53,243 bases of DNA. It comes from Roseibacillus sp. (GTDB taxonomy: Bacteria > Verrucomicrobiota > Verrucomicrobiia > Verrucomicrobiales > Akkermansiaceae). The first letter of the stretch is position 1. Each line of letters starts with the position of its first letter. Location of the stretch: contig CBDEUM010000017.1 of the NCBI GenBank assembly GCA_965242925.1, positions 1 through 53,243 on the forward strand. Direction: 5' to 3'. Shown in pieces: positions 1-53,243 of the stretch. The notes beneath the pieces were generated by a model that did no database searches, had not been told where the DNA came from, and saw only the letters and a list, made by a program, of their open reading frames with translations. The translations under genes were made by a program, and so were the position numbers.

Positions 1-1807
1 GTGGGCTGGGCCTGGCCCAAGACACTGCTCCCACCCCCATTCGTGTCACCGAGGGCCCCATTCTCGGACGCCCCGCCCCCGATTCCATGACTCTCTGGGT
101 TCGCACCGAACGGCAAGGCGAGGTCGTGGTGTTCTACGGGACCGATGCCAACAAGCTCGATCAGCACCGCCACCTTCGCACACACGGGGTCCGGAGCATG
201 ACTACACTGGTCATACTAACTATCGGTAAGCTCTCTCCCGACACCCGCTATCACTACCGCATAGCTGACCACCAGTTAAGTGGATCCTTTCGCACCATGC
301 CTCGGGCAAAGGATTTCAAGAATCCCCAAGGGTAACCCCAAGGGATTGTTTAACTTCCGTTTCGAGTTCGCCTGCGGCAACAATCCCAAGGGCGGCGGCG
401 ACAGCGTTGGACCCACCTTGCCGGTCTTCGATACCTTGAACGCCAAGGTGCGCGACCAGGTGAACTTCGCCATCCTCAACGGCGACTGGCTTTACGAAAC
501 TCGCCGCGACTACCCGCCGCAGGAATGGCTTCACCAAGTAGGCCTCGAGCCGAAGCTCCACCGCATTGTCCGCCACGCCCCCACCGTCGTCGGGGTCTGG
601 CAAAACTACAAGGACCTGTTGCACCGCGGCCGTAACCTCAGCGGAGTGGCACCGTCACATGTGCCCACCTATTTTACCGCCGACGATCATGAACTGATCA
701 ACGATATCTACGGGCCCGGCGAGACCGGTTACGTCAACCGTCGAGCCGTTTTTCGGGACATCGCCACGCAAGCCTGGTTCGACTACCTGGCTTGGGCCAA
801 TCCCACCGAACATGATGTCGCCGGCCCATTTCGGTTCCGCTCATTTTGAAAAAGGATCCGACGTGCTGGAAGACCCCGATGCCGATTTCACCGAGCCTTC
901 CTCTGGCCGACATGGCCAACCTCCACGTCCACTGGGGCACGCCTACGGCAGGGGTACCCGATTCCAAGCTGGACGCCCAGCCGGGCAACCCGAACTCCGC
1001 GGTCTACGAAATCGTGAAGGTGCTGGGACCCAACAAACTGAATGTGAAGCCTGCAGCCAAGGCGACTGGTCGGGCATCGTATTCCATCGGGCGTCGCTGC
1101 TACGGCAAGTTCACCGTCTCCAATTGCGATTTCTTCCTCCTCGACACCCGCACCCACCGCAACCTTCACAACGTCGACCATCCGGACAACCCGAAGGCCA
1201 CCATGATCGGCAAGCAGCAACTGAAGTGGCTCAAGGACGGCATACGCAAGAGCAAGTCCGACTTCATCTTCGTGGTCTCTTCGGTCAACTTTATGGTTCC
1301 CCACGTCGGCAGCGGAGGAGGAGACGACAAGCAGGCCACGATCAAGAAGGATGATGCCTGGACTGTTTTCCTAAAGGAGCGTGAGGAACTCATCGAGTTC
1401 TGGGACGATCTGGACAAGGCGGTCTTTGTCCTGACCGGCGACCTTCACAACAGCTTCGCGATCAAGATCACGGACAACGTGTACGAATTCGCCAGTGGCC
1501 CGCACAACTCGATCAATCACGCTCCCATGAAGGACGAGGGCGGTCGCCCCGCCAATGGCAGGTTCAATTACGGCCCGCGGGCCTGCGACATCCGCTGGTC
1601 AAGCTATGCCATGGAGGACATCCCGCGGGCCAACCGCACCTTTCCCCATTACTGCGTGGTGCAGGTCAACAACGTCTTCAACAACCCGGTCGAGCGCAAC
1701 GGCGAGCGCTGGTTCGCCTTTCCGCACCCCAGGTCATCTTCCAGTTTCACGACGCCATCACCGGGGAGCTCCGTTACTCGGAGACCATCGTGCTGGGCCT
1801 GGACTAG
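1..1807 (+). pseudogene. phoD: Alkaline phosphatase D (PhoD-like metallophosphoesterase), 5'-truncated by the window edge and broken by several frameshifts
   Basis: ORF pieces 87-335, 280-849, 812-~895 and 846-~1730 join into one PhoD-like protein with motifs NGDWLYE, DDHEL, FFLLDTR, MIGKQQLKWLKDG and LTGDLH. After a -1 shift near 1730 the frame reads QVIFQFHDAITGELRYSETIVLGLD to TAG 1805-1807. It may be an intact gene with sequencing indels. Confidence 0.8.
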
Positions 1808-46650: not shown

Positions 46651-47400
46651 TTAGCCGCGGTGCCGGCGACGCAGGAAGGACAAGGTGAACACGGATCCGA
46701 GGAAAGCGAGAAGCGGGGCGCTCGGCTCGGGAATTGGGTTTGGGACGGCATTGAGCGCCACGTAGTCATGTCCCATCCAGTTACCGCCACCGCTGTCGTT
46801 GTAATTGATCCCGCGCAATTCGACATAGTTATCGAACCCGGATCCAATCTCGCCATTGACGCTGGCGAGGGTGAATTGCGGGGTGGTGATGACGGTGTTG
46901 AGGTTACCGGGGTTGACAACAACTTCGGACGCCACGAGGACACTGTTGAAATAGACCTCCACGCCGTAACGTTCGGTTCCACCCTGCCCATGCAGGTTGT
47001 TCGCCTCAAAGGAAACCGAGAACAGGTCGGTCGCATCGACGGTTGTCAGGTTGAAGTGAAAGCGAGAGGAATTGTCGACGCCGGCAAAGGCCCGTTCAGC
47101 GCCAAGCTCATCGGTGGCAACGACCCCTACCGGAGTGTAGTTACCTCCGTCGACCACGGTGGTGTAAACGCCTGCAAAGTAATAGTCGTCATCGCTGGTA
47201 CGGGGTGCCAGCCCACTGTCGGGAGCTCCGGGAAGTTCATTCACTGCTGTTTCCTGGACCCAGTCGACGTCAGGTCCGCCACCGATGCCATCTTGAGGCC
47301 AAACCCGTCCGGGGGCACCTGCTTGCCAGACAATGGTAGCGTGAGAAGCCATTGCACTGAGCGCAAAAATGGTAAGTAAGGGCATGCAGGTTTTTGCCAT
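46651..47400 (-). CDS. PEP-CTERM sorting-domain surface protein
   Basis: Signal MAKTCMPLLTIFALSAMASHA; C-terminus IPEPSAPLLAFLGSVFTLSFLRRRHRG. Confidence 0.9.
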   Translation of the reverse strand: MAKTCMPLLTIFALSAMASHATIVWQAGAPGRVWPQDGIGGGPDVDWVQETAVNELPGAPDSGLAPRTSDDDYYFAGVYTTVVDGGNYTPVGVVATDELGAERAFAGVDNSSRFHFNLTTVDATDLFSVSFEANNLHGQGGTERYGVEVYFNSVLVASEVVVNPGNLNTVITTPQFTLASVNGEIGSGFDNYVELRGINYNDSGGGNWMGHDYVALNAVPNPIPEPSAPLLAFLGSVFTLSFLRRRHRG

Positions 47401-47747
47401 GCCTGAAAACTGCCAACTCCCATGGCATGATGCAAACATTCTAGCCACTTATTTTCAGAAAAGTGCGCGCCCACGGTCACATCGCTTTTTTCCATCCACT
47501 CGTGATTTCACATGAATACGAACAATATCCTCGGTCCCCATGTCCGCATGTGGATTTCTTGAGCACGCGCCTTCGGTGAGTTCCCAAATAACGTCGCTCA
47601 GCGCTCTTGATAAATCGGTTCCGCAACACCCGCACCGGATCGGCCTCACTCTGGCGAGAACGGGGTATCCCGGGCAGCCCTGCCTCATCCCACCCGGGAA
47701 CTGCGAGTTGCACATCGTGCAGGCCCTGTTACCAACCTTAACGGCCG

Positions 47748-48953
47748 ATGACCCTGTCCAAGTCCACCCCAGAACGGGGAACCCCACCCCCTCGCCCGGT
47801 CCTGGCCCTGCTCTTACCTCTCTGCGTGCTCTGCTGCGGAGCCAACCTCTTTCTTTCCTGGAGTTGGCTCCCGGCTGCGGCAATTCTGCTCGCGGTCGCG
47901 ACCCTGGTGGTGGGCTGGCGCCGAATAGGCTGGGGCTGGACGGCCCTGATTGTTGTCACGCTGGCGGTGCCGGGCTGGAGACTGACGCAACGCTCCACCC
48001 AAGATTCCATTGTGGACCCCGATGCCGCTCAAATTCGCGAGCTGGTAAGCGTGGAGGAACGGATCCTCGCCCTCACCCCACAGCTCCGCGAGCTCTCGAA
48101 AAGCATGCAGAACCTGCGCCTCCCGGACGGCCCCCGGCTGATCCACTTTGCGTCCGAGGTGACCGTGCGGGCAGCAGGGCAGACTGCGGACACCTCCGCC
48201 CCCGGGGATCTCGACCTGCTGCGCCCCCTCCTCAAGGAGGTGGCCTGGATCGAGCAGGCTTCCTTTTACTTCATCGACGGGAGGTTTCCGGACGAGGAGG
48301 AGGATCTCTTCGAGGGTGAAGTGGGATTTCGTGGACTGGCCAAATTGAAATCCGGCGGATGGCAGGGACTGATCGGCAAGTTTCTCATCAAGTGGACCAG
48401 GGGCACAGGCGAGGAGGGTGCGGAATGGAAGATCAGCGGCTGGGAACAAAAGGAACTAGTGATCATGGCGAGTGCGCTGCGTCTCTTTGGCGATGCGCTG
48501 GGCACCGCCTTGCCCCGCCCGGCCGACCGGGCCCTCGCACATCGCTCTCCCCACCAGGAGGCCGCCATCAAGTTCTACCAAGGGGGCGCGAAGAAACATC
48601 CGCATCCCTACTTCGCTCCGATCTCCGTCAATCAGAAGCCCGGTCTCGCGGTGGTGGACATCGATTCAGATGGCGACGATGACATCTATGTCACGGTCCG
48701 GATCGGGCGCAACCTGCTCTTCGAGAACCAGGGCGATGGCACTTTCGTGGAAGCGGCGGAGAAGTATGGGATCCACTTCACCGGGCACTTCACCTGTGCG
48801 CTCTTCGCGGACTTCGACAACGACGGCGATCCGGACCTCTTCCTGGGCCGTAGCTTGAAATCCAGCCTCTACTACGAGAACCGGGCGGGCCACTTTTATC
48901 ACAGCCCGCACGCCTTGATCAGGCGCTCGATCTGGGATCCGTGGGGATCGTAG
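47748..48953 (+). CDS. FG-GAP/ASPIC-UnbV (CRTAC1-like) protein, segment 1: N-terminal TM helices + first FG-GAP repeats; frameshifted into segment 2 near 48900
   Basis: Hydrophobic N-terminus; VDIDSDGDDDIYV, LLFENQGDGTF and ADFDNDGDPDLF. The next frame is open from about 48900 (QPARLDQALDLGSVG...). Confidence 0.8.
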   Translation: MTLSKSTPERGTPPPRPVLALLLPLCVLCCGANLFLSWSWLPAAAILLAVATLVVGWRRIGWGWTALIVVTLAVPGWRLTQRSTQDSIVDPDAAQIRELVSVEERILALTPQLRELSKSMQNLRLPDGPRLIHFASEVTVRAAGQTADTSAPGDLDLLRPLLKEVAWIEQASFYFIDGRFPDEEEDLFEGEVGFRGLAKLKSGGWQGLIGKFLIKWTRGTGEEGAEWKISGWEQKELVIMASALRLFGDALGTALPRPADRALAHRSPHQEAAIKFYQGGAKKHPHPYFAPISVNQKPGLAVVDIDSDGDDDIYVTVRIGRNLLFENQGDGTFVEAAEKYGIHFTGHFTCALFADFDNDGDPDLFLGRSLKSSLYYENRAGHFYHSPHALIRRSIWDPWGS

Positions 48954-49807
48954 GGCAGCAGAAAGAGTTCCCGATGACGGCGGTCTCGGCTTCCGCGGCA
49001 GACTACAATGGCGACGGCTTGCTCGATTTGTACTTGCTGACCTACCGTCCGTCGACAATCGGCGGCAACTCAAGTCCCTCGGGCGGCTCGGGCGGGGTCG
49101 GAGCGCAAACCGAACACTGGCCTGATCACTTTTATCCGCCCGGGATGGCCGCGGAGTATTACCGCCGCCACAGGGAAGCAAACTCGGGAAACGACCCCCA
49201 GTTCCCGAACCTCCTCAACCAGATCGGACCGCCGAACATTCTCTATGTGAACCGCGGCAAGGGGCGCTTTGAAATTGCGAAGGAGAACACCCAATTGGGG
49301 ATCTGGAGCAACTCCCTGCAGGCCACCTGGGCGGATTATGACGAGGATGGCGACCCGGATGTCTTCATCGCCAACGACTGGGCGCCCGACAACCTCTTCC
49401 GCAACGACGGAGAGTCCGGCTTCACCGACGTCACGAAGGAGGCCGGCCTCACCGAATTCGGGTTCGCGATGGGGGCGACCTGGGGCGACTACGACAACGA
49501 TGGCCTGCAGGACCTCTACGTCTCCAACATGTTCAGCAAGGCGGGAGCCCGCATCACGAACCGCGTCCCGGGAATCGCCGGGATCTACAAGCAGTCCGCG
49601 GCCGGTAATTATCTCTACCGTCAGCGGCCCAATCACACCTTCGAGCTTGTCTCGGGAGACAAGCCCCCTGCCCTCGCGGTCACCAAGGCAGGCTGGTCGT
49701 GGGGTGGCCAGTTCGCCGATTTTGACAACGATGGCTTTCTCGATCTCTACGTGCTGAGCGGATACTTCACCGCGCCCGAGGCCGTCTCATCGGAGCTGGA
49801 CTTGTGA
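48941..49807 (+). CDS. FG-GAP/ASPIC-UnbV protein, segment 2 (FG-GAP repeats) ending at an in-frame TGA (candidate Sec codon)
   Basis: ADYNGDGLLDLY, ADYDEDGDPDVFIANDW, GDYDNDGLQDLYVSNM and GWSWG..FADFDNDGFLDLY; ends ELDL-TGA. Confidence 0.85.
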   Translation: MGIVGQQKEFPMTAVSASAADYNGDGLLDLYLLTYRPSTIGGNSSPSGGSGGVGAQTEHWPDHFYPPGMAAEYYRRHREANSGNDPQFPNLLNQIGPPNILYVNRGKGRFEIAKENTQLGIWSNSLQATWADYDEDGDPDVFIANDWAPDNLFRNDGESGFTDVTKEAGLTEFGFAMGATWGDYDNDGLQDLYVSNMFSKAGARITNRVPGIAGIYKQSAAGNYLYRQRPNHTFELVSGDKPPALAVTKAGWSWGGQFADFDNDGFLDLYVLSGYFTAPEAVSSELDL

Positions 49808-50974
49808 AGTAACCTCTGGCGCACGGTCGTGCGCACCGACAGCAACCTCGCCCGGCGCAGCTTCCGCTTTTCCGAGGAATGGAGGCGCCGCACCGGGGAT
49901 GCCCCGCTCACCCCGCAGATTGACCGACGCCTGCAGGGAGGCCGGGAGGAAGACGGCCGCTATGTCGTCCATTCCCTGAGCGGAATGGAGCGCAACCACT
50001 TCTTCATGAACCGGGACGGAAAAAAATTCTCCGATCTCTCGCTGATTTCCGGGATCGACAATCCGGCGGACAGCCGCGGATTCGTCCTGCTCGATTACGA
50101 TCACGACGGCTGGCAGGACCTCGCCCTGGTGAACGCCAACGAACCGCTCTTCAACATCTACCGGAATCAGACGGGCGAGGCTGAAGGAAAGGCGGACCAC
50201 CATGTCATTGCGATTCGCTTCGAGGGCGGAGCCCGAGGAGAGGCCAGCCCCAACGAGAACTACGCTTGCCGCGACGGATATGGCGCCTTGGTCACCGCCG
50301 ACCTGGGTGACCTGACGATCAAGCGCGAACATCGCTGCGGAGAGGGCTTCAGCGTGCAGAACAGCCGCACCATGGTGATTGGGATCGGCTCACGCGAAAT
50401 GGTTCCCTCCCTCACGGTTCGGTGGCCATCAGGCAAGACAACCACCCGGGAGAACGTGGCAGCCGGCACCCTTCTCATCGCCTACGAAAATCCCACCCAC
50501 TCGGGCGCCAGCACGCAGTTCACGCTGAGCAACTACCACGATGTTGTGCCGCGGAAGCAGGCCCCCGTCCCTCTCACCAGCTTTCCGATCACGGAGCCCG
50601 ACGCCACCGCACCCATTCGGGTCTACACCACGATGGCCACCTGGTGTGTGGCATGTCAGTCGCATCTCCCGCAGCTCCAGGCCCTGAAGAACGGACTGGG
50701 TGAAGGGGCCGCTCTCATCGGCATTCCGATCGACCCGGACGATAACGCCAAGATGCTCACCGAGTACGCCGAGGAGTGGAAGCCTGCCTATCGCATCCGC
50801 GCCGACCTGGAATCCGATGCGCGCGCCGCAGTGACAACATTTCTTGCCAGGCAATCCGGCGAAGAGGCCGCCCTGCCCTCCACCATCATCACGAATGCGG
50901 AAGGCAAAGTCCTCAAGGTGATGTCCGGCGTGCCGGATGTCTCCATGGTTCGCAAACTCGCGGCTGGTCCCTGA
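49808..50974 (+). CDS. FG-GAP/ASPIC-UnbV protein, segment 3 (same frame as segment 2): last FG-GAP repeat, ASPIC/UnbV domain, TlpA-like thioredoxin domain with WCVAC
   Basis: SNLWRTVVRTD, SLSGMERNHFF, DSRGFVLLDYDHDGWQDL, RDGYGALV, GEGFSVQNS, VRWPSG, TMATWCVAC and LPSTII. Confidence 0.85.
   Translation, partial: SNLWRTVVRTDSNLARRSFRFSEEWRRRTGDAPLTPQIDRRLQGGREEDGRYVVHSLSGMERNHFFMNRDGKKFSDLSLISGIDNPADSRGFVLLDYDHDGWQDLALVNANEPLFNIYRNQTGEAEGKADHHVIAIRFEGGARGEASPNENYACRDGYGALVTADLGDLTIKREHRCGEGFSVQNSRTMVIGIGSREMVPSLTVRWPSGKTTTRENVAAGTLLIAYENPTHSGASTQFTLSNYHDVVPRKQAPVPLTSFPITEPDATAPIRVYTTMATWCVACQSHLPQLQALKNGLGEGAALIGIPIDPDDNAKMLTEYAEEWKPAYRIRADLESDARAAVTTFLARQSGEEAALPSTIITNAEGKVLKVMSGVPDVSMVRKLAAGP
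49819..49834 (+). promoter_or_regulatory. Putative bacterial SECIS hairpin
   Basis: gcgcac-GGTC-gtgcgc: 6-bp stem with a G-first tetraloop whose first base is 18 nt after the TGA. Confidence 0.65.
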
Positions 50975-50979
50975 TCAGA

Positions 50980-53243
50980 TCAACGGGCCTGGACGCGCAA
51001 CCGGGAGAAGAAGCGCTCTCCGAGGCCTCCCGCAGGGTTCAGTCGCACCGTCGTGAGCGCCCGGCCATCTCCGAGATTGACCACGCTGACTACCACCGCC
51101 TCCGCTCCGGCAGCCTGCCAGGATTGCAGGTCGTTGGAGTAGTCGATCTCGATGGTCGCCCCGTCCGCGGCGATACTGACGGGATAGCTCAGGGTCGGCA
51201 GGGAGAGTATCTGTCCCTCGATATCGTAGTCCTGCATGGTGAAGGTCGCCTGAAGAGGACCTGCGCCGAGACCATTTCCAAACGCGTAGTCGAGAAGATC
51301 CGTAATCCCATTGCCATCCGCATCGCCCAACGGGTTTACGGGCAGTGGAAGTGCGTCCGTGTCATTCGGATTGCCATCCGGGAGCAGGCTCGCGCGCCAA
51401 CTCGCAGGGTCATCCGGATCCGGGCTGGTCTCGGGCGCGATGAGGACGATGCTGTTTCCGAGCCCGTCCGCTTCCTCGGGCCACGGGGCGAGGTCGTTGT
51501 AGCGAAACTCCGCGATCGTGCCGTTGAGAGCGTCCTCCAGTTTCACAGTGTCGCCGCCGTTGTTGAGAGCGCTCATATTCGCAAACACGCCGGCCACCGG
51601 CAGACCGATGCCGTGCACGCCTTCGAAGGCGGCGAGATTGCGGACCACGAGAACCCTCGCGCCAGGAGGCAGGCTGGTCACCGCACTGCCGGAGAAGTCG
51701 AACTGGATTCCTGCCGTGAAGCGAACATTGGTGAGATCGAGGGTAATCGAATCGCTGATGTTGATGAGTTCAATGAACTCGGTCAGCTCGCTTCCGAGTG
51801 GATGATACATGATCTCGGTGATCCGGAGGTAGAGCTGCGCATCCGAGGGATTGCCTACGTAGGTAGTCGCACTGATCTCGTTGCCGGCGGAATCCGAAAG
51901 GGTGACGGTCTCGCCGAAGCTGGAAAGGTGCCCCTCGTATGCGCCCTGCACGAAGAGGCCCTCGCCGCCCTTGGGACCCTGAGTGCGGGCGCGGAAGGCG
52001 GTGACATCGGGGCTGACGTAAAGCGAACTGCCCGCCGGGATGACGGTCCCGCCCTGGAAGGTAAACTCGATCCCGCCATCCAACTTCCAGTCCGAGATGT
52101 CGACCGCGATGCCGTTCGGATTGGTCAACTCGATGTACTCCTCGTCCTGGTTGCCCGAGGGAGGCGCAAACTCAAGCGCTCCGAAGTTGACGATCGGTTC
52201 GCCGGGAGGTCCCACTAACTGGGTCCCGCCGTAAAGTTCGGGCCTGATGATCATGTCGCTGCTCCCGGTGCCTTGGTTGAGACCATGAATGGCGAGGATA
52301 TTCTGCCCGGTCTTCAGGGCGCCGAGGTGCTGCGTAATGTTGTAGATGTCGAAGCTCCCGGCATTGGCCTCGTGGCTGGCGTTGAGGGCCGCCGAGTTCC
52401 AGGTCACCGTCCCCGGTGCGTTGTCGGCCTGGACCACCGTGCCATTGATGAAGGCCACGAACCCGTCGTCCCACTGCATGCGCAATTCGAGGCTGTCGAA
52501 GGCACTGGGATCCGCCACGTTGAAGGGGATGCGGATGTAGATGCTGTTGTTGCTCCTCATCTGCGTATTGACGTCGGTGCCGATCAGGGATTGGTAACCA
52601 CTGGTGCGCTCGTAGCCGATTCCGGTGGTCCCTGCGATCCAACCGGAGGTGTCGAAGGGCTCGAAGGCCGCGAGTCCGATCCAGGCAAGTCCCAGGCTGT
52701 TGTCGGAGGGGACAAAAGCATGCGAAGGCGCGGGGGCCTCTACCAGGGGAGTAAGCTGGAACGAGGCCGCACCGGTCTGCGGCAGGGGAATCTCCCCACC
52801 GTTGCCGACCGTCTGGTTGTTGTATATCTCGTTGCGCCGCGCCGGAAGGTACTCGTTCTTCCAGCGCAGGACGGCCTCCGCCATCGACTCCACCGCGGGA
52901 TTGGTATTCGTGTGGGAAACCGGCGAACCGCTGCCCTGGAGCCACGATCCCCACTTGACAAAATCGCGCTGGGCATCCGAGGGGACGATCGAGGGCGGAT
53001 CGATGAGGGCCGATTGCTCATCCAGTCGCCGCTCGTACCAGCGTTCGGCGAGAGGGGTGCCCGGCTCCTGGAGATAGCGGTCTGAGAGCGTCCGCATCCT
53101 CCGCAGGATCATGGATCGCATCGCGGAATTGCCGAACATGTGGGAGACCAATCGGATCGAGCTTCCAGTCACCACGAGACCATGGGAGTATAGATTGTTG
53201 TCGAAGTAGGTGTTTTGGGAGTTCCAGACGCGACCGCCGGAGA
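50980..53243 (-). CDS. Large CotH/lamin-tail-domain secreted protein, C-terminal part (5' end outside the window)
   Basis: Frame is open to the window edge; LRRMRTLSD (end of CotH region), WDDGFVAFING, EEYIELTN, LRITEIMYHP and WPEEADG; terminal FFSRLRVQAR. Confidence 0.85.
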   Translation of the reverse strand, partial: SGGRVWNSQNTYFDNNLYSHGLVVTGSSIRLVSHMFGNSAMRSMILRRMRTLSDRYLQEPGTPLAERWYERRLDEQSALIDPPSIVPSDAQRDFVKWGSWLQGSGSPVSHTNTNPAVESMAEAVLRWKNEYLPARRNEIYNNQTVGNGGEIPLPQTGAASFQLTPLVEAPAPSHAFVPSDNSLGLAWIGLAAFEPFDTSGWIAGTTGIGYERTSGYQSLIGTDVNTQMRSNNSIYIRIPFNVADPSAFDSLELRMQWDDGFVAFINGTVVQADNAPGTVTWNSAALNASHEANAGSFDIYNITQHLGALKTGQNILAIHGLNQGTGSSDMIIRPELYGGTQLVGPPGEPIVNFGALEFAPPSGNQDEEYIELTNPNGIAVDISDWKLDGGIEFTFQGGTVIPAGSSLYVSPDVTAFRARTQGPKGGEGLFVQGAYEGHLSSFGETVTLSDSAGNEISATTYVGNPSDAQLYLRITEIMYHPLGSELTEFIELINISDSITLDLTNVRFTAGIQFDFSGSAVTSLPPGARVLVVRNLAAFEGVHGIGLPVAGVFANMSALNNGGDTVKLEDALNGTIAEFRYNDLAPWPEEADGLGNSIVLIAPETSPDPDDPASWRASLLPDGNPNDTDALPLPVNPLGDADGNGITDLLDYAFGNGLGAGPLQATFTMQDYDIEGQILSLPTLSYPVSIAADGATIEIDYSNDLQSWQAAGAEAVVVSVVNLGDGRALTTVRLNPAGGLGERFFSRLRVQAR

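Follow-up and report, generated by a model that had tools for sequence, protein, structure and literature searches.

The gene split by an in-frame TGA

The question raised by this locus is whether the TGA at 49805-49807 ends a gene or specifies selenocysteine (Sec) within a longer one. The codon lies on the forward strand of the window, by which we mean the whole stretch of 53,243 nucleotides of Roseibacillus sp. DNA that was analysed. As had been observed in the initial annotation of this DNA, the open reading frames 48941-49807 and 49829-50974 belong to one frame in which this TGA is the sole separator, and read-through across it gives ..FTAPEAVSSELDL-TGA-SNLWRTVVRTD... The features of the gene are as follows.

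47748..48910, + strand: 5' part of the coding sequence, beginning at ATG 47748, with the N-terminal domain and the first FG-GAP repeats
48911..48957, + strand: frameshifting 47-nt insertion, missing in the paralog on contig C12 and in the congeners G008 and G014
48958..49804, + strand: middle part of the coding sequence, with FG-GAP propeller repeats, ending before the putatively recoded codon
49805..49807, + strand: in-frame UGA, predicted Sec; 71 of the 100 distinct homologous sites have TGA here
49808..50971, + strand: 3' part of the coding sequence, with an FG-GAP-like blade, UnbV_ASPIC and a thioredoxin fold
49819..49834, + strand: SECIS-like hairpin, stem 49819-49824/49829-49834, apical loop GGUC 49825-49828
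50093-50110, + strand: DYDHDG motif of a further FG-GAP-like blade
50276-50473, + strand: UnbV_ASPIC domain
50627-50938, + strand: TlpA/AhpC-TSA-like thioredoxin fold
50642..50656, + strand: CxxC motif (WCVAC) in the fused thioredoxin-like domain
50972..50974, + strand: true terminator, TGA, where homologs end too

The 5' part contains three hydrophobic segments that were judged by eye to form a membrane anchor, matches FG-GAP_3 (Pfam, 3.8e-15) and aligns with the N-terminal 400 residues of homologs of about 1074 residues. In the read-through protein, Pfam matches above cut-off were obtained for FG-GAP_3 (1.7e-30, 105.8 bits) followed by UnbV_ASPIC (1.4e-13, 50.9 bits), an architecture also present in all seven paralogs scanned. 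The C-terminal domain retains WCVAC and scores slightly below the Pfam cut-offs for AhpC-TSA (25.0 bits vs 26) and further below those for Redoxin (18.6 vs 26.6), with a weak match to NCBIfam TlpA under the curated cut-off (5.1e-5, 23 bits); the paralog L125 exceeds both Pfam cut-offs (AhpC-TSA 45.3 bits, Redoxin 34.2 bits). Since this gene ends at its own TGA 50972-50974, a position at which homologs end too, TGA is not generally a sense codon here, in agreement with the earlier statement that UGA has not been globally reassigned. The proposal that Sec sits on a Ca-binding loop found no support: the residue lies about 24 positions past the DFDNDG motif.

Conservation of the TGA codon among homologs

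Cys is the usual stand-in for Sec, and the initial annotation had named conserved TGA or Cys at this position as what to look for in homologs. Of the two, TGA was recovered: over 100 distinct homologous DNA sites, derived from metagenome-assembled genomes of Verrucomicrobiota, Planctomycetota, Gemmatimonadota and Proteobacteria, the column contains TGA in 71 (U-type), Glu in 29 (E-type) and Cys in none. TAA or TAG, which the initial annotation had considered for homologs, was not found at the column in any of these sites, the stop-type codon being TGA in all 71. In a count of 80 named loci, in which 10 loci escaped the search pattern, we detected 43 TGA, 20 GAA, 10 GAG and no Cys codons; the TGA-bearing loci were labelled Verrucomicrobiota, Planctomycetota, Gemmatimonadota, Gammaproteobacteria and Myxococcota. 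The codon is shared with congeners (97-98% identity) as well as with more distant homologs (37-57% identity), and the family has multiple members in this genome, where 13 genes carry TGA at the column and none has C or E. The earlier suggestion to check reads at 49805 was followed with contigs of X1, X3 and X5, which are marine metagenome runs from different studies, and these show no difference at 49805-49807.

Relatives at the protein level are more varied. Among 69 protein sites Cys occurs in two (P0122 and P0203), the others having E, G, N, S, A, D or R; the TPR-bearing branch has Gly, Asn, Ser, Ala or Asp, and all 17 aligned close full-length database homologs have Glu. The residue at this column is thus essential neither to the fold nor to the role of those relatives. 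In the tree, the E-type genes are monophyletic (support 99) and branch from within U-type lineages. When we searched 301 genomes, an even sample of the phylum, with the signature TGAAGYN6TGGCGN3GGTCGTG, a strict pattern that misses divergent members, we obtained matches in just two, this genome (10 sites) and a second (1 site), implying that the trait is patchy in the phylum and not general; the reversed control of the signature gave no match in the same 301 genomes.

Constraint on the downstream hairpin

A hairpin, GCGCAC-GGUC-GUGCGC, starts 11 nt after the TGA (stem +15..20/+25..30, loop GGUC +21..24), and the first G of its loop is the 18th base past the TGA, as the initial annotation had stated. 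Folding of the single sequence gave a minimum free energy of -11 kcal/mol with z = -0.26, and 78 of 200 shuffles were as stable. The hairpin by itself is thus no better than chance for its composition, and its significance has to come from comparison of homologs. A perfect 6-bp stem is present in 54 of 71 U-type vs 11 of 29 E-type sites. Across 53 U-type sequences 92.5% of cells pair, with both-sided changes in four of the six pairs, and none of 500 shuffles matched the observed covariation on any of five measures. In contrast, 467 of 500 shuffles did as well as the 29 E-type sequences, in which 82.8% of cells still pair, the stem being largely encoded by the conserved peptide W-R-T-x-V-R. Pair 18-27, formed by two synonymous third positions, is paired in 50/53 U-type and 14/29 E-type sequences; the loop codons are nearly fixed as ACG GTC in the U-type and read NNN ATG in the E-type. 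Conservation and covariation of the hairpin, on which the earlier reading depended, were thus both observed, with compensatory changes only where TGA is present. An Rfam scan of 49600-50000 (E<=10) returned a chance snoRNA match alone and no matching family.

UGA recoding in E. coli fdhF is SelB- and SECIS-dependent, and the loop and spacing of the hairpin described here presumably resemble those of the fdhF element. A comparison is also available within the same genome, whose selD has an in-frame UGA followed by CGCGCA-GGUC-CUGCGCG. Both genes thus combine an in-frame UGA with a short intragenic stem bearing a GGUC-type loop, although the loop is located at +21..24 in the former and at +36..39 in selD.

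Sec machinery and the most probable reading

Of the Sec machinery named in the initial annotation, selD, selB and tRNA-Sec were recovered from this genome. Both selD (366.6 bits, with one TGA) and selB (287.5 bits) exceed their cut-offs, and a tRNA-Sec was detected (59 bits; called SeC with anticodon tca by ARAGORN). Two models were used to search for selA, and neither recovered it from this assembly, which is 89.87% complete; 18 of 19 other congeneric genomes have the gene. Among 16 genomes sampled from other families of the order, strong TGA-bearing matches occurred only where selA is present (G033, G037, G039 and G040). tRNA-Sec matches above cut-off were obtained in 5/5 Glu-type and 5/5 Sec-type genomes, including scores of 49-53 bits in two of the compared genomes that are near the false-positive range of control genomes; loss of the machinery therefore does not account for the Glu type.

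Conservation of the UGA, UGA-linked constraint on the hairpin and presence of Sec machinery are established here by comparison of sequences. It is highly probable (roughly 85%) that TGA 49805-49807 is a conserved ancestral Sec codon and that the hairpin acts as its SECIS element; the relay part of this reading we infer. The comparative tests support the central proposal of the initial annotation, namely a selenoprotein gene with a SECIS-like hairpin that is cut in two by gene callers. The TGA would then be the ancestral Sec codon of a large extracytoplasmic protein family, whose members appear to be membrane-anchored proteins or lipoproteins that combine an FG-GAP beta-propeller with an UnbV/ASPIC domain, usually with a TlpA/AhpC-like thioredoxin domain bearing CxxC and often with TPR repeats. 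Recoding of the UGA would be directed by the hairpin with the GGUC apical loop, which begins 11 nt after this codon and would be bound by SelB.

Fused CxxC motif and a possible redox relay

The CxxC motif is kept in 50 of 52 U-type genes having the thioredoxin domain, and in only 5/24 E-type loci and 9/113 E-type database proteins. It occurs in none of 53 TPR-type relatives with A, D, E, G or N at the Sec column, and it is retained in relatives with C (1/1), R (1/1) or S (3/6) there. Retention of CxxC together with Sec suggests a Se-S redox relay. The predicted selenol may be the redox-active centre, which the fused CxxC could recycle by selenenylsulfide exchange, and electrons might be supplied by a DsbD/CcdA-type membrane protein, by analogy with other fused periplasmic reductases; the genome contains a gene for a DsbD_TM protein. 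The functional link between Sec and CxxC that had been proposed earlier is upheld as co-occurrence, whereas significance was not reached: the association gave four supported independent contrasts, two in the same direction and practically none in the opposite one, with a median p of 0.5. No thioredoxin-like gene was evident beside two paralogs without the fused domain. It is possible, at somewhat less than even odds in our judgement, that these proteins represent a new extracytoplasmic selenoenzyme class, in which a propeller selenol with almost no Cys equivalent works only together with CxxC and both are lost together.

State of this copy and alternative explanations

The intact gene of about 1075 codons assumed in the initial annotation is not what this copy contains, because the 47-nt insertion at 48911-48957, which occurs once in the genome, places 47748-48953 (the 5' third of the gene) in another frame. 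In silico removal of the 47 nt restores a single frame of 1059 codons with the internal TGA only. Contigs of run X1 enter the insertion from both sides, whereas an X3 contig passes from 48907 directly to 48955, skipping 47 nt, so that an insertion-free form exists in another metagenome. The second copy, on contig C12, bears a different lesion, a 1-nt deletion, along with N-terminal indels, so that the frame is broken 5' of the UGA in both copies of the assembly. No decay is visible 3' of the insertion, where identity to intact congeners is 97-98% and the TGA, hairpin and CxxC are retained. Contigs of the RNA run X15 match 48621-48866, 49157-49307 and 49366-49692 only, leave the UGA outside and are uninformative on transcription.

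Two alternatives concern the status of the gene. A recent nonsense mutation in a plain pseudogene, or a pair of genuinely separate genes, would agree with the frameshift and with Glu at the column in 17/17 aligned close database homologs, and was rejected as hardly credible: TGA is conserved in the DNA of relatives (71 distinct sequences spanning several phyla) and in 13 genes of the genome itself, the hairpin is maintained by compensatory changes, and the Glu type is a derived clade inside the TGA type. In contrast, it is an evenly balanced question whether the Sec codon is ancestral and real while the copy in the window is a dead or variant allele. As its frame is shifted about 300 codons before the UGA, no full-length selenoprotein would be made from this locus, and the insertion could mean that an authentic selenoprotein gene has been disabled in this allele; the uniqueness of the insertion, its absence from the C12 copy, G008 and G014, the X1 contigs and the separate lesions of the C12 copy all point in this direction. 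However, the source assembly comprises 42 contigs and is 89.87% complete with 3.2% contamination, and synteny of C17 31860-53243 with C12 33977-54517 at 82-98.5% identity makes two co-assembled populations or a mis-join possible; moreover, the X3 contig omits exactly these 47 nt, and the downstream part is undecayed.

The other two alternatives accept the codon as functional and differ from the preferred reading in what is inserted or what it does. The UGA might be recoded without Sec, by near-cognate tRNA (Trp, Cys or Arg) read-through or by reinitiation at GTG 49829. Se incorporation here is a prediction, many residues are tolerated at the column in non-Sec relatives, and a GTG does lie inside the hairpin. 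We nevertheless regard this as very improbable, given that UGA-bearing members are confined to selA-positive genomes among the sampled relatives, that the GGUC loop is identical to that behind the selD UGA of this genome, and that the codon is TGA in 71 sites and never TAA or TAG. Furthermore, the domain extends across this position with neither a ribosome-binding region nor a signal peptide, and more frequent drift to sense codons would be expected if read-through were neutral. Alternatively, Sec could be real and serve as a metal ligand of the propeller rather than as a nucleophile recycled by CxxC, Sec and Glu being interchangeable as soft and hard ligands. FG-GAP repeats are known metal-binding modules, and the sister clade has replaced Sec by Glu instead of Cys and gained a Cys 35 residues upstream (WGG-C-F, in 26/29), where the U-type has Q, K or H. 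Nevertheless, maintenance of CxxC with Sec and its decay without Sec fit thiol/selenol exchange better, and the TPR branch has the non-ligands G, N, S or A at the column, which makes the ligand role unlikely, though less so than recoding without Sec.

Relation to known proteins and earlier records

In having an FG-GAP propeller followed by UnbV_ASPIC, the window protein resembles the CRTAC1/ASPIC-UnbV family (PF13517 and PF07593). Of solved structures, sequence comparison retrieved only human cartilage acidic protein 1 (PDB 9etn_A, E 7.8e-7), with an unreliable alignment around the Sec column; unlike the present family, human CRTAC1 has no Sec, thioredoxin domain or TPR. TlpA, ResA and AhpC-TSA-like proteins are periplasmic thiol-disulfide oxidoreductases, and thioredoxin domains fused to reductases are found in proteins such as PilB/MsrAB. 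The window protein shares with the TlpA/ResA/AhpC-TSA-like group a putative C-terminal thioredoxin fold with W-C-x-x-C and a predicted extracytoplasmic location, whereas, unlike in TlpA/ResA or PilB/MsrAB, its thioredoxin domain is fused to a propeller that would carry Sec.

The family has already been listed as candidates, in a 2016 supplementary table, and is widespread but barely documented. Table S9 of that PLoS One paper (PMC4807772) contains four candidates of the same domain family, which are likewise annotated as two genes divided at an in-frame UGA and whose closest non-Sec homolog has Gly, not Cys; a SECIS element was predicted by bSECISearch in three of the four. These are four supplement rows, and the main text does not mention ASPIC or FG-GAP. 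A family-wide analysis, a covariation test and the link to the thioredoxin CxxC are absent from that paper and are provided in the present study, whose gene comes from a marine verrucomicrobial genome with the nearest named records in Akkermansiaceae UBA7890 and Roseibacillus sp. A keyword search of the BSepDB 2026 supplementary file gave no entry for FG-GAP, ASPIC, VCBS, CRTAC1, Verrucomicrobi or propeller, and a literature keyword search yielded nothing relevant joining selenoproteins or selenocysteine to FG-GAP, ASPIC, UnbV, CRTAC1 or VCBS. Similarly, word searches of the deep-Sep paper, a 2026 AEM review and the 2008 GOS paper returned nothing relevant on propeller/repeat, Verrucomicrobi or Planctomycet. 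According to the deep-Sep paper, Cys homologs at the Sec column are the criterion of Sec/Cys-based predictors; the present family lies outside this criterion, which is usual and not defining.

Implications

If the reading as a selenoprotein holds, members of this family are halved by gene callers wherever they are found, and the closest database entry (P0003) indeed starts at the GTG just behind the TGA. The family departs from the rule that Sec has Cys homologs, on which current predictors lean; under the selenoenzyme-class reading, having Glu, Gly or Asn homologs rather than Cys homologs would cause predictors based on Sec/Cys pairs to miss it. The Sec-type and the derived Glu-type sister clade, with their parallel decay of CxxC, offer a natural experiment on the chemistry involved. 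Were the tentative selenoenzyme-class reading true, the selenoproteomes of marine Verrucomicrobia and Planctomycetes would be far larger than catalogued, with a part of them exported, and marine selenium demand would have been underestimated. A Sec residue at this position would also bring selenium chemistry to an extracytoplasmic site, carried by a propeller.

Structure of the window gene

The region at 47748-50974 (+) is a single gene split into three pieces:

47748-48953, + strand: piece 1, in a frame different from that of pieces 2 and 3
48941-49807, + strand: piece 2, in the frame of piece 3
49829-50974, + strand: piece 3, in the frame of piece 2

Reading of the sequence confirmed the initial annotation's two same-frame open reading frames parted by TGA 49805-49807, which is the sole separator of pieces 2 and 3. 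Read through, these pieces give FG-GAP_3 repeats, a UnbV_ASPIC domain and a WCVAC motif, with a weak AhpC-TSA/Redoxin (thioredoxin-fold) match, and the gene terminates at its own TGA at the same place as its homologs. Three hydrophobic segments were judged by eye at the N-terminus. Pieces 1 and 2 are put out of frame by a 47-nt insertion inside the coding sequence (48911-48957), which has no second occurrence in the genome and is absent from a 98%-identical copy on contig C12 of the same assembly and from two congeners (G008 and G014); without it, the gene reads as a single frame of 1059 codons, interrupted internally by the TGA alone. One contig from a marine metagenome run (X3) omits exactly this insertion, and insertion-bearing and insertion-free forms of the gene seem to coexist. 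Metagenome contigs were also seen to end at the insertion borders.

Both copies of the ortholog in the assembly are broken upstream of the UGA, that of the window by the insertion and the C12 copy (L129, G000:C12:49264-52248) by indels, namely a 1-nt deletion (CTACC-AGGGGG) and others in the N-terminal membrane-anchor region; the C12 copy keeps both TGA and hairpin. The window copy may therefore be non-functional. Window positions 31860-53243 are syntenic with G000:C12:33977-54517 across some 21 kb (82-98.5% identity), which could reflect duplication of a large segment or the co-binning of two related populations (estimated assembly contamination, 3.18%). The gene is flanked by an ORF at 46651-47448 (-), encoding a 265-aa protein whose C-terminus, by eye, resembles a PEP-CTERM sorting signal, and by an ORF of >750 aa at 50980-53241 (-) that extends past the window end.

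Conservation of the UGA codon

Protein searches returned thousands of unbroken homologs of ~1074 aa, and Glu occupied the alignment column of the TGA in 17 of the 17 database homologs that span it. Because this was found together with a frameshift, a pseudogene was suspected first, a reading that was overturned by the DNA of relatives. Forty related genomes were searched, and exactly one TGA was present in almost all of the matches listed. Its column is shared by orthologs at 97-98% identity and by homologs as distant as 37% identity, within a common motif D-L-U-S-x-x-W-R-x-V-V. The present genome has 13 TGA-bearing family genes, and in none of them does the column hold Cys or Glu. A pattern search of 80 named MAG loci gave 73 sites in 70 loci and none in the other 10, spanning Verrucomicrobiota, Planctomycetota, Gemmatimonadota, Gamma-, Alpha- and 'Delta'-proteobacteria and Myxococcota; the column codon was TGA in 43, GAA in 20 and GAG in 10. 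Cys, which had been suggested as an alternative to TGA in homologs, was encoded at none of these sites, its place being taken by Glu. In the pooled non-redundant set of 100 distinct sites, 71 are UGA-type and 29 Glu-type, a conservation that supports the proposed selenoprotein interpretation. The TGA itself also withstood comparison with independent data, as contigs of three marine metagenome runs from different studies span 49805-49807 with zero differences.

UGA-bearing members lie side by side in several planctomycete and verrucomicrobial loci (L117, nt 979 and 3593; L118, nt 2536 and 5150; L094, nt 3644 and 6628; and L028), and therefore the family expands in tandem too.

A conserved hairpin downstream of the UGA

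The stem of the window gene (GCGCAC/GUGCGC, loop GGUC) does not exceed shuffled sequence in stability (z = -0.26) and is partly encoded by the conserved peptide W-R-T-V-V-R, so a comparative test was needed. Glu-type sister genes provide a natural control because they encode nearly the same peptide (W-R-T-M-V-R). In the 53 distinct UGA-type sequences, pairing holds in 92.5% of cells and both sides have changed in four of the six pairs (C-G to G-C, U-A or A-U, some involving an amino-acid replacement, for example R..R to S..L), and none of 500 shuffles reached any of five measures, bearing out the proposed covariation of the hairpin. In the 29 Glu-type sequences, 82.8% pair, a value equalled by 467 of 500 shuffles. 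Within these alignments the sharpest contrast between the two types is pair 18-27, formed by two synonymous third positions and paired in 50/53 UGA-type but 14/29 Glu-type sequences. The apical loop is GGUC in UGA-type genes (AGUU in a few) versus NAUG in Glu-type genes. Among copies within this genome, one stem position varies as G-U, A-U, U-G and G-C, and in TPR-bearing paralogs the stem register is offset by one (GCGNCA-GGUCG-UGNCGC), with 6/6 pairs formed at 16 of 18 sites.

Rfam contained no match for the hairpin stretch. In selD of this genome, an established selenoprotein gene, an in-frame UGA is followed by CGCGCA-GGUC-CUGCGCG (G000:C14:573853-574776, L001 nt 1531; Sec context ..SSCAG-U-ASKLG.., loop at +36..39). 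The apical loop of the E. coli fdhF SECIS also contains GGUC, at about the same distance from the UGA.

Sec machinery and distribution of the trait

The Sec machinery sought for this host was largely found: selD (366.6 bits, one TGA), selB (287.5 bits) and tRNA-Sec (59 bits; SeC with anticodon tca by ARAGORN) are present, and only selA was missed, by both PF03841 and TIGR00474, in this 89.87%-complete assembly. Since selA occurs in 18 of the 19 other genomes of the genus, its absence here is probably an assembly gap. The 16 genomes sampled from the order's other families gave strong TGA-bearing matches to the gene family in selA-positive ones only (G033, G037, G039 and G040). When 301 genomes sampled evenly across the phylum were scanned for a strict UGA-plus-hairpin signature, two matched, this genome contributing 10 sites, and a reversed control gave zero matches in the same 301; on this sampling, the trait is lineage-restricted. 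Loss of the Sec trait does not account for the Glu type, given tRNA-Sec matches in five of five Glu-type genomes.

Domain architecture and a possible link between Sec and CxxC

Seven paralogs were scanned, all having lipoprotein-type signals (by eye), an N-terminal domain, a U-bearing FG-GAP propeller and UnbV_ASPIC. Three have a Pfam AhpC-TSA match with CxxC (CAAC, CAMC and CAPC) and two more a CxxC-like motif in translation only (CPHC and a degenerate CPVS); these five extend C-terminally, four with Pfam TPR repeats, and the remaining two stop after UnbV_ASPIC. Human CRTAC1 (9etn, E 7.8e-7) is the only solved relative that sequence comparison found, and its function gives no help for the Sec-bearing family. 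A fused thioredoxin-like domain is lacking in 19 of the 71 UGA-type genes, and no partner gene was evident beside two such genes.

Functionally, the most telling observation is what becomes of the fused thioredoxin CxxC. It is kept in 50 of the 52 UGA-type genes possessing the domain, in 5/24 Glu-type loci and 9/113 Glu-type database proteins, and in none of 53 TPR-type relatives with A, D, E, G or N at the column. It persists in the relatives whose residue there is C (1/1), R (1/1) or S (3/6), and on the tree these fall within the subclade holding the UGA-type TPR-branch genes. Residues at the column of non-Sec TPR-branch relatives are mixed (E 18, G 16, S 10, N 10, A 6, D 6, C 2 and R 1), as read at 69 sites; the pattern matched 68 of 120 proteins and missed the other 52. 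Sec thus does not stand in for a conserved catalytic Cys at this position. In a FastTree phylogeny (155 rows, midpoint root for drawing only), the 28 Glu-type orthologs form a single clade, supported at 99 and embedded within UGA-type lineages, with CxxC retained in a few members and lost in several sublineages. Such a pattern would be expected if selection on CxxC acts only while Sec is present. Phylogenetically independent contrasts yielded four supported pairs only, and the sign test was not significant.

Because CxxC is retained with Sec and lost in Glu-type sublineages, we infer an extracytoplasmic selenol/thiol relay, in which the reactive centre would be the propeller Sec, recycled by the fused TlpA-like CxxC; the genome encodes a DsbD-type electron conduit. 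A role of Sec as a metal ligand is a minor rival to this relay, suggested by the exchange of Sec for Glu and by the presence, in 26 of 29 Glu-type genes, of a Cys at WGG-C-F. The latter residue, 35 positions before the Sec column (window 49709-49711, Q of WGGQF; column checked in L040-L111), is Q, K or H in Sec-type orthologs versus Cys in the Glu-type genes, a correlated swap.

Relation to described selenoproteins

Four candidates of this domain family, likewise split into two called genes at an in-frame UGA, are listed in a supplement by Kim et al. (2016, PLoS One, PMC4807772, Table S9); their closest non-Sec homolog has Gly at the column, and bSECISearch was positive for three of the four. 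The family's domain words are absent from the main text. The BSepDB paper (2026) describes 111 families, and the family was not found by keyword in one supplementary file of that paper. According to the deep-Sep paper, prediction leans on Sec/Cys pairs. Keywords for the family are likewise absent from a 2026 AEM review and the 2008 GOS paper. The genomic comparisons support the view that the window gene is a SelB/SECIS-recoded bacterial selenoprotein, so far listed in a supplement only. It would be unusual for a selenoprotein in having almost no Cys homologs, in its multi-copy expansion and in its coupling to a fused CxxC domain.
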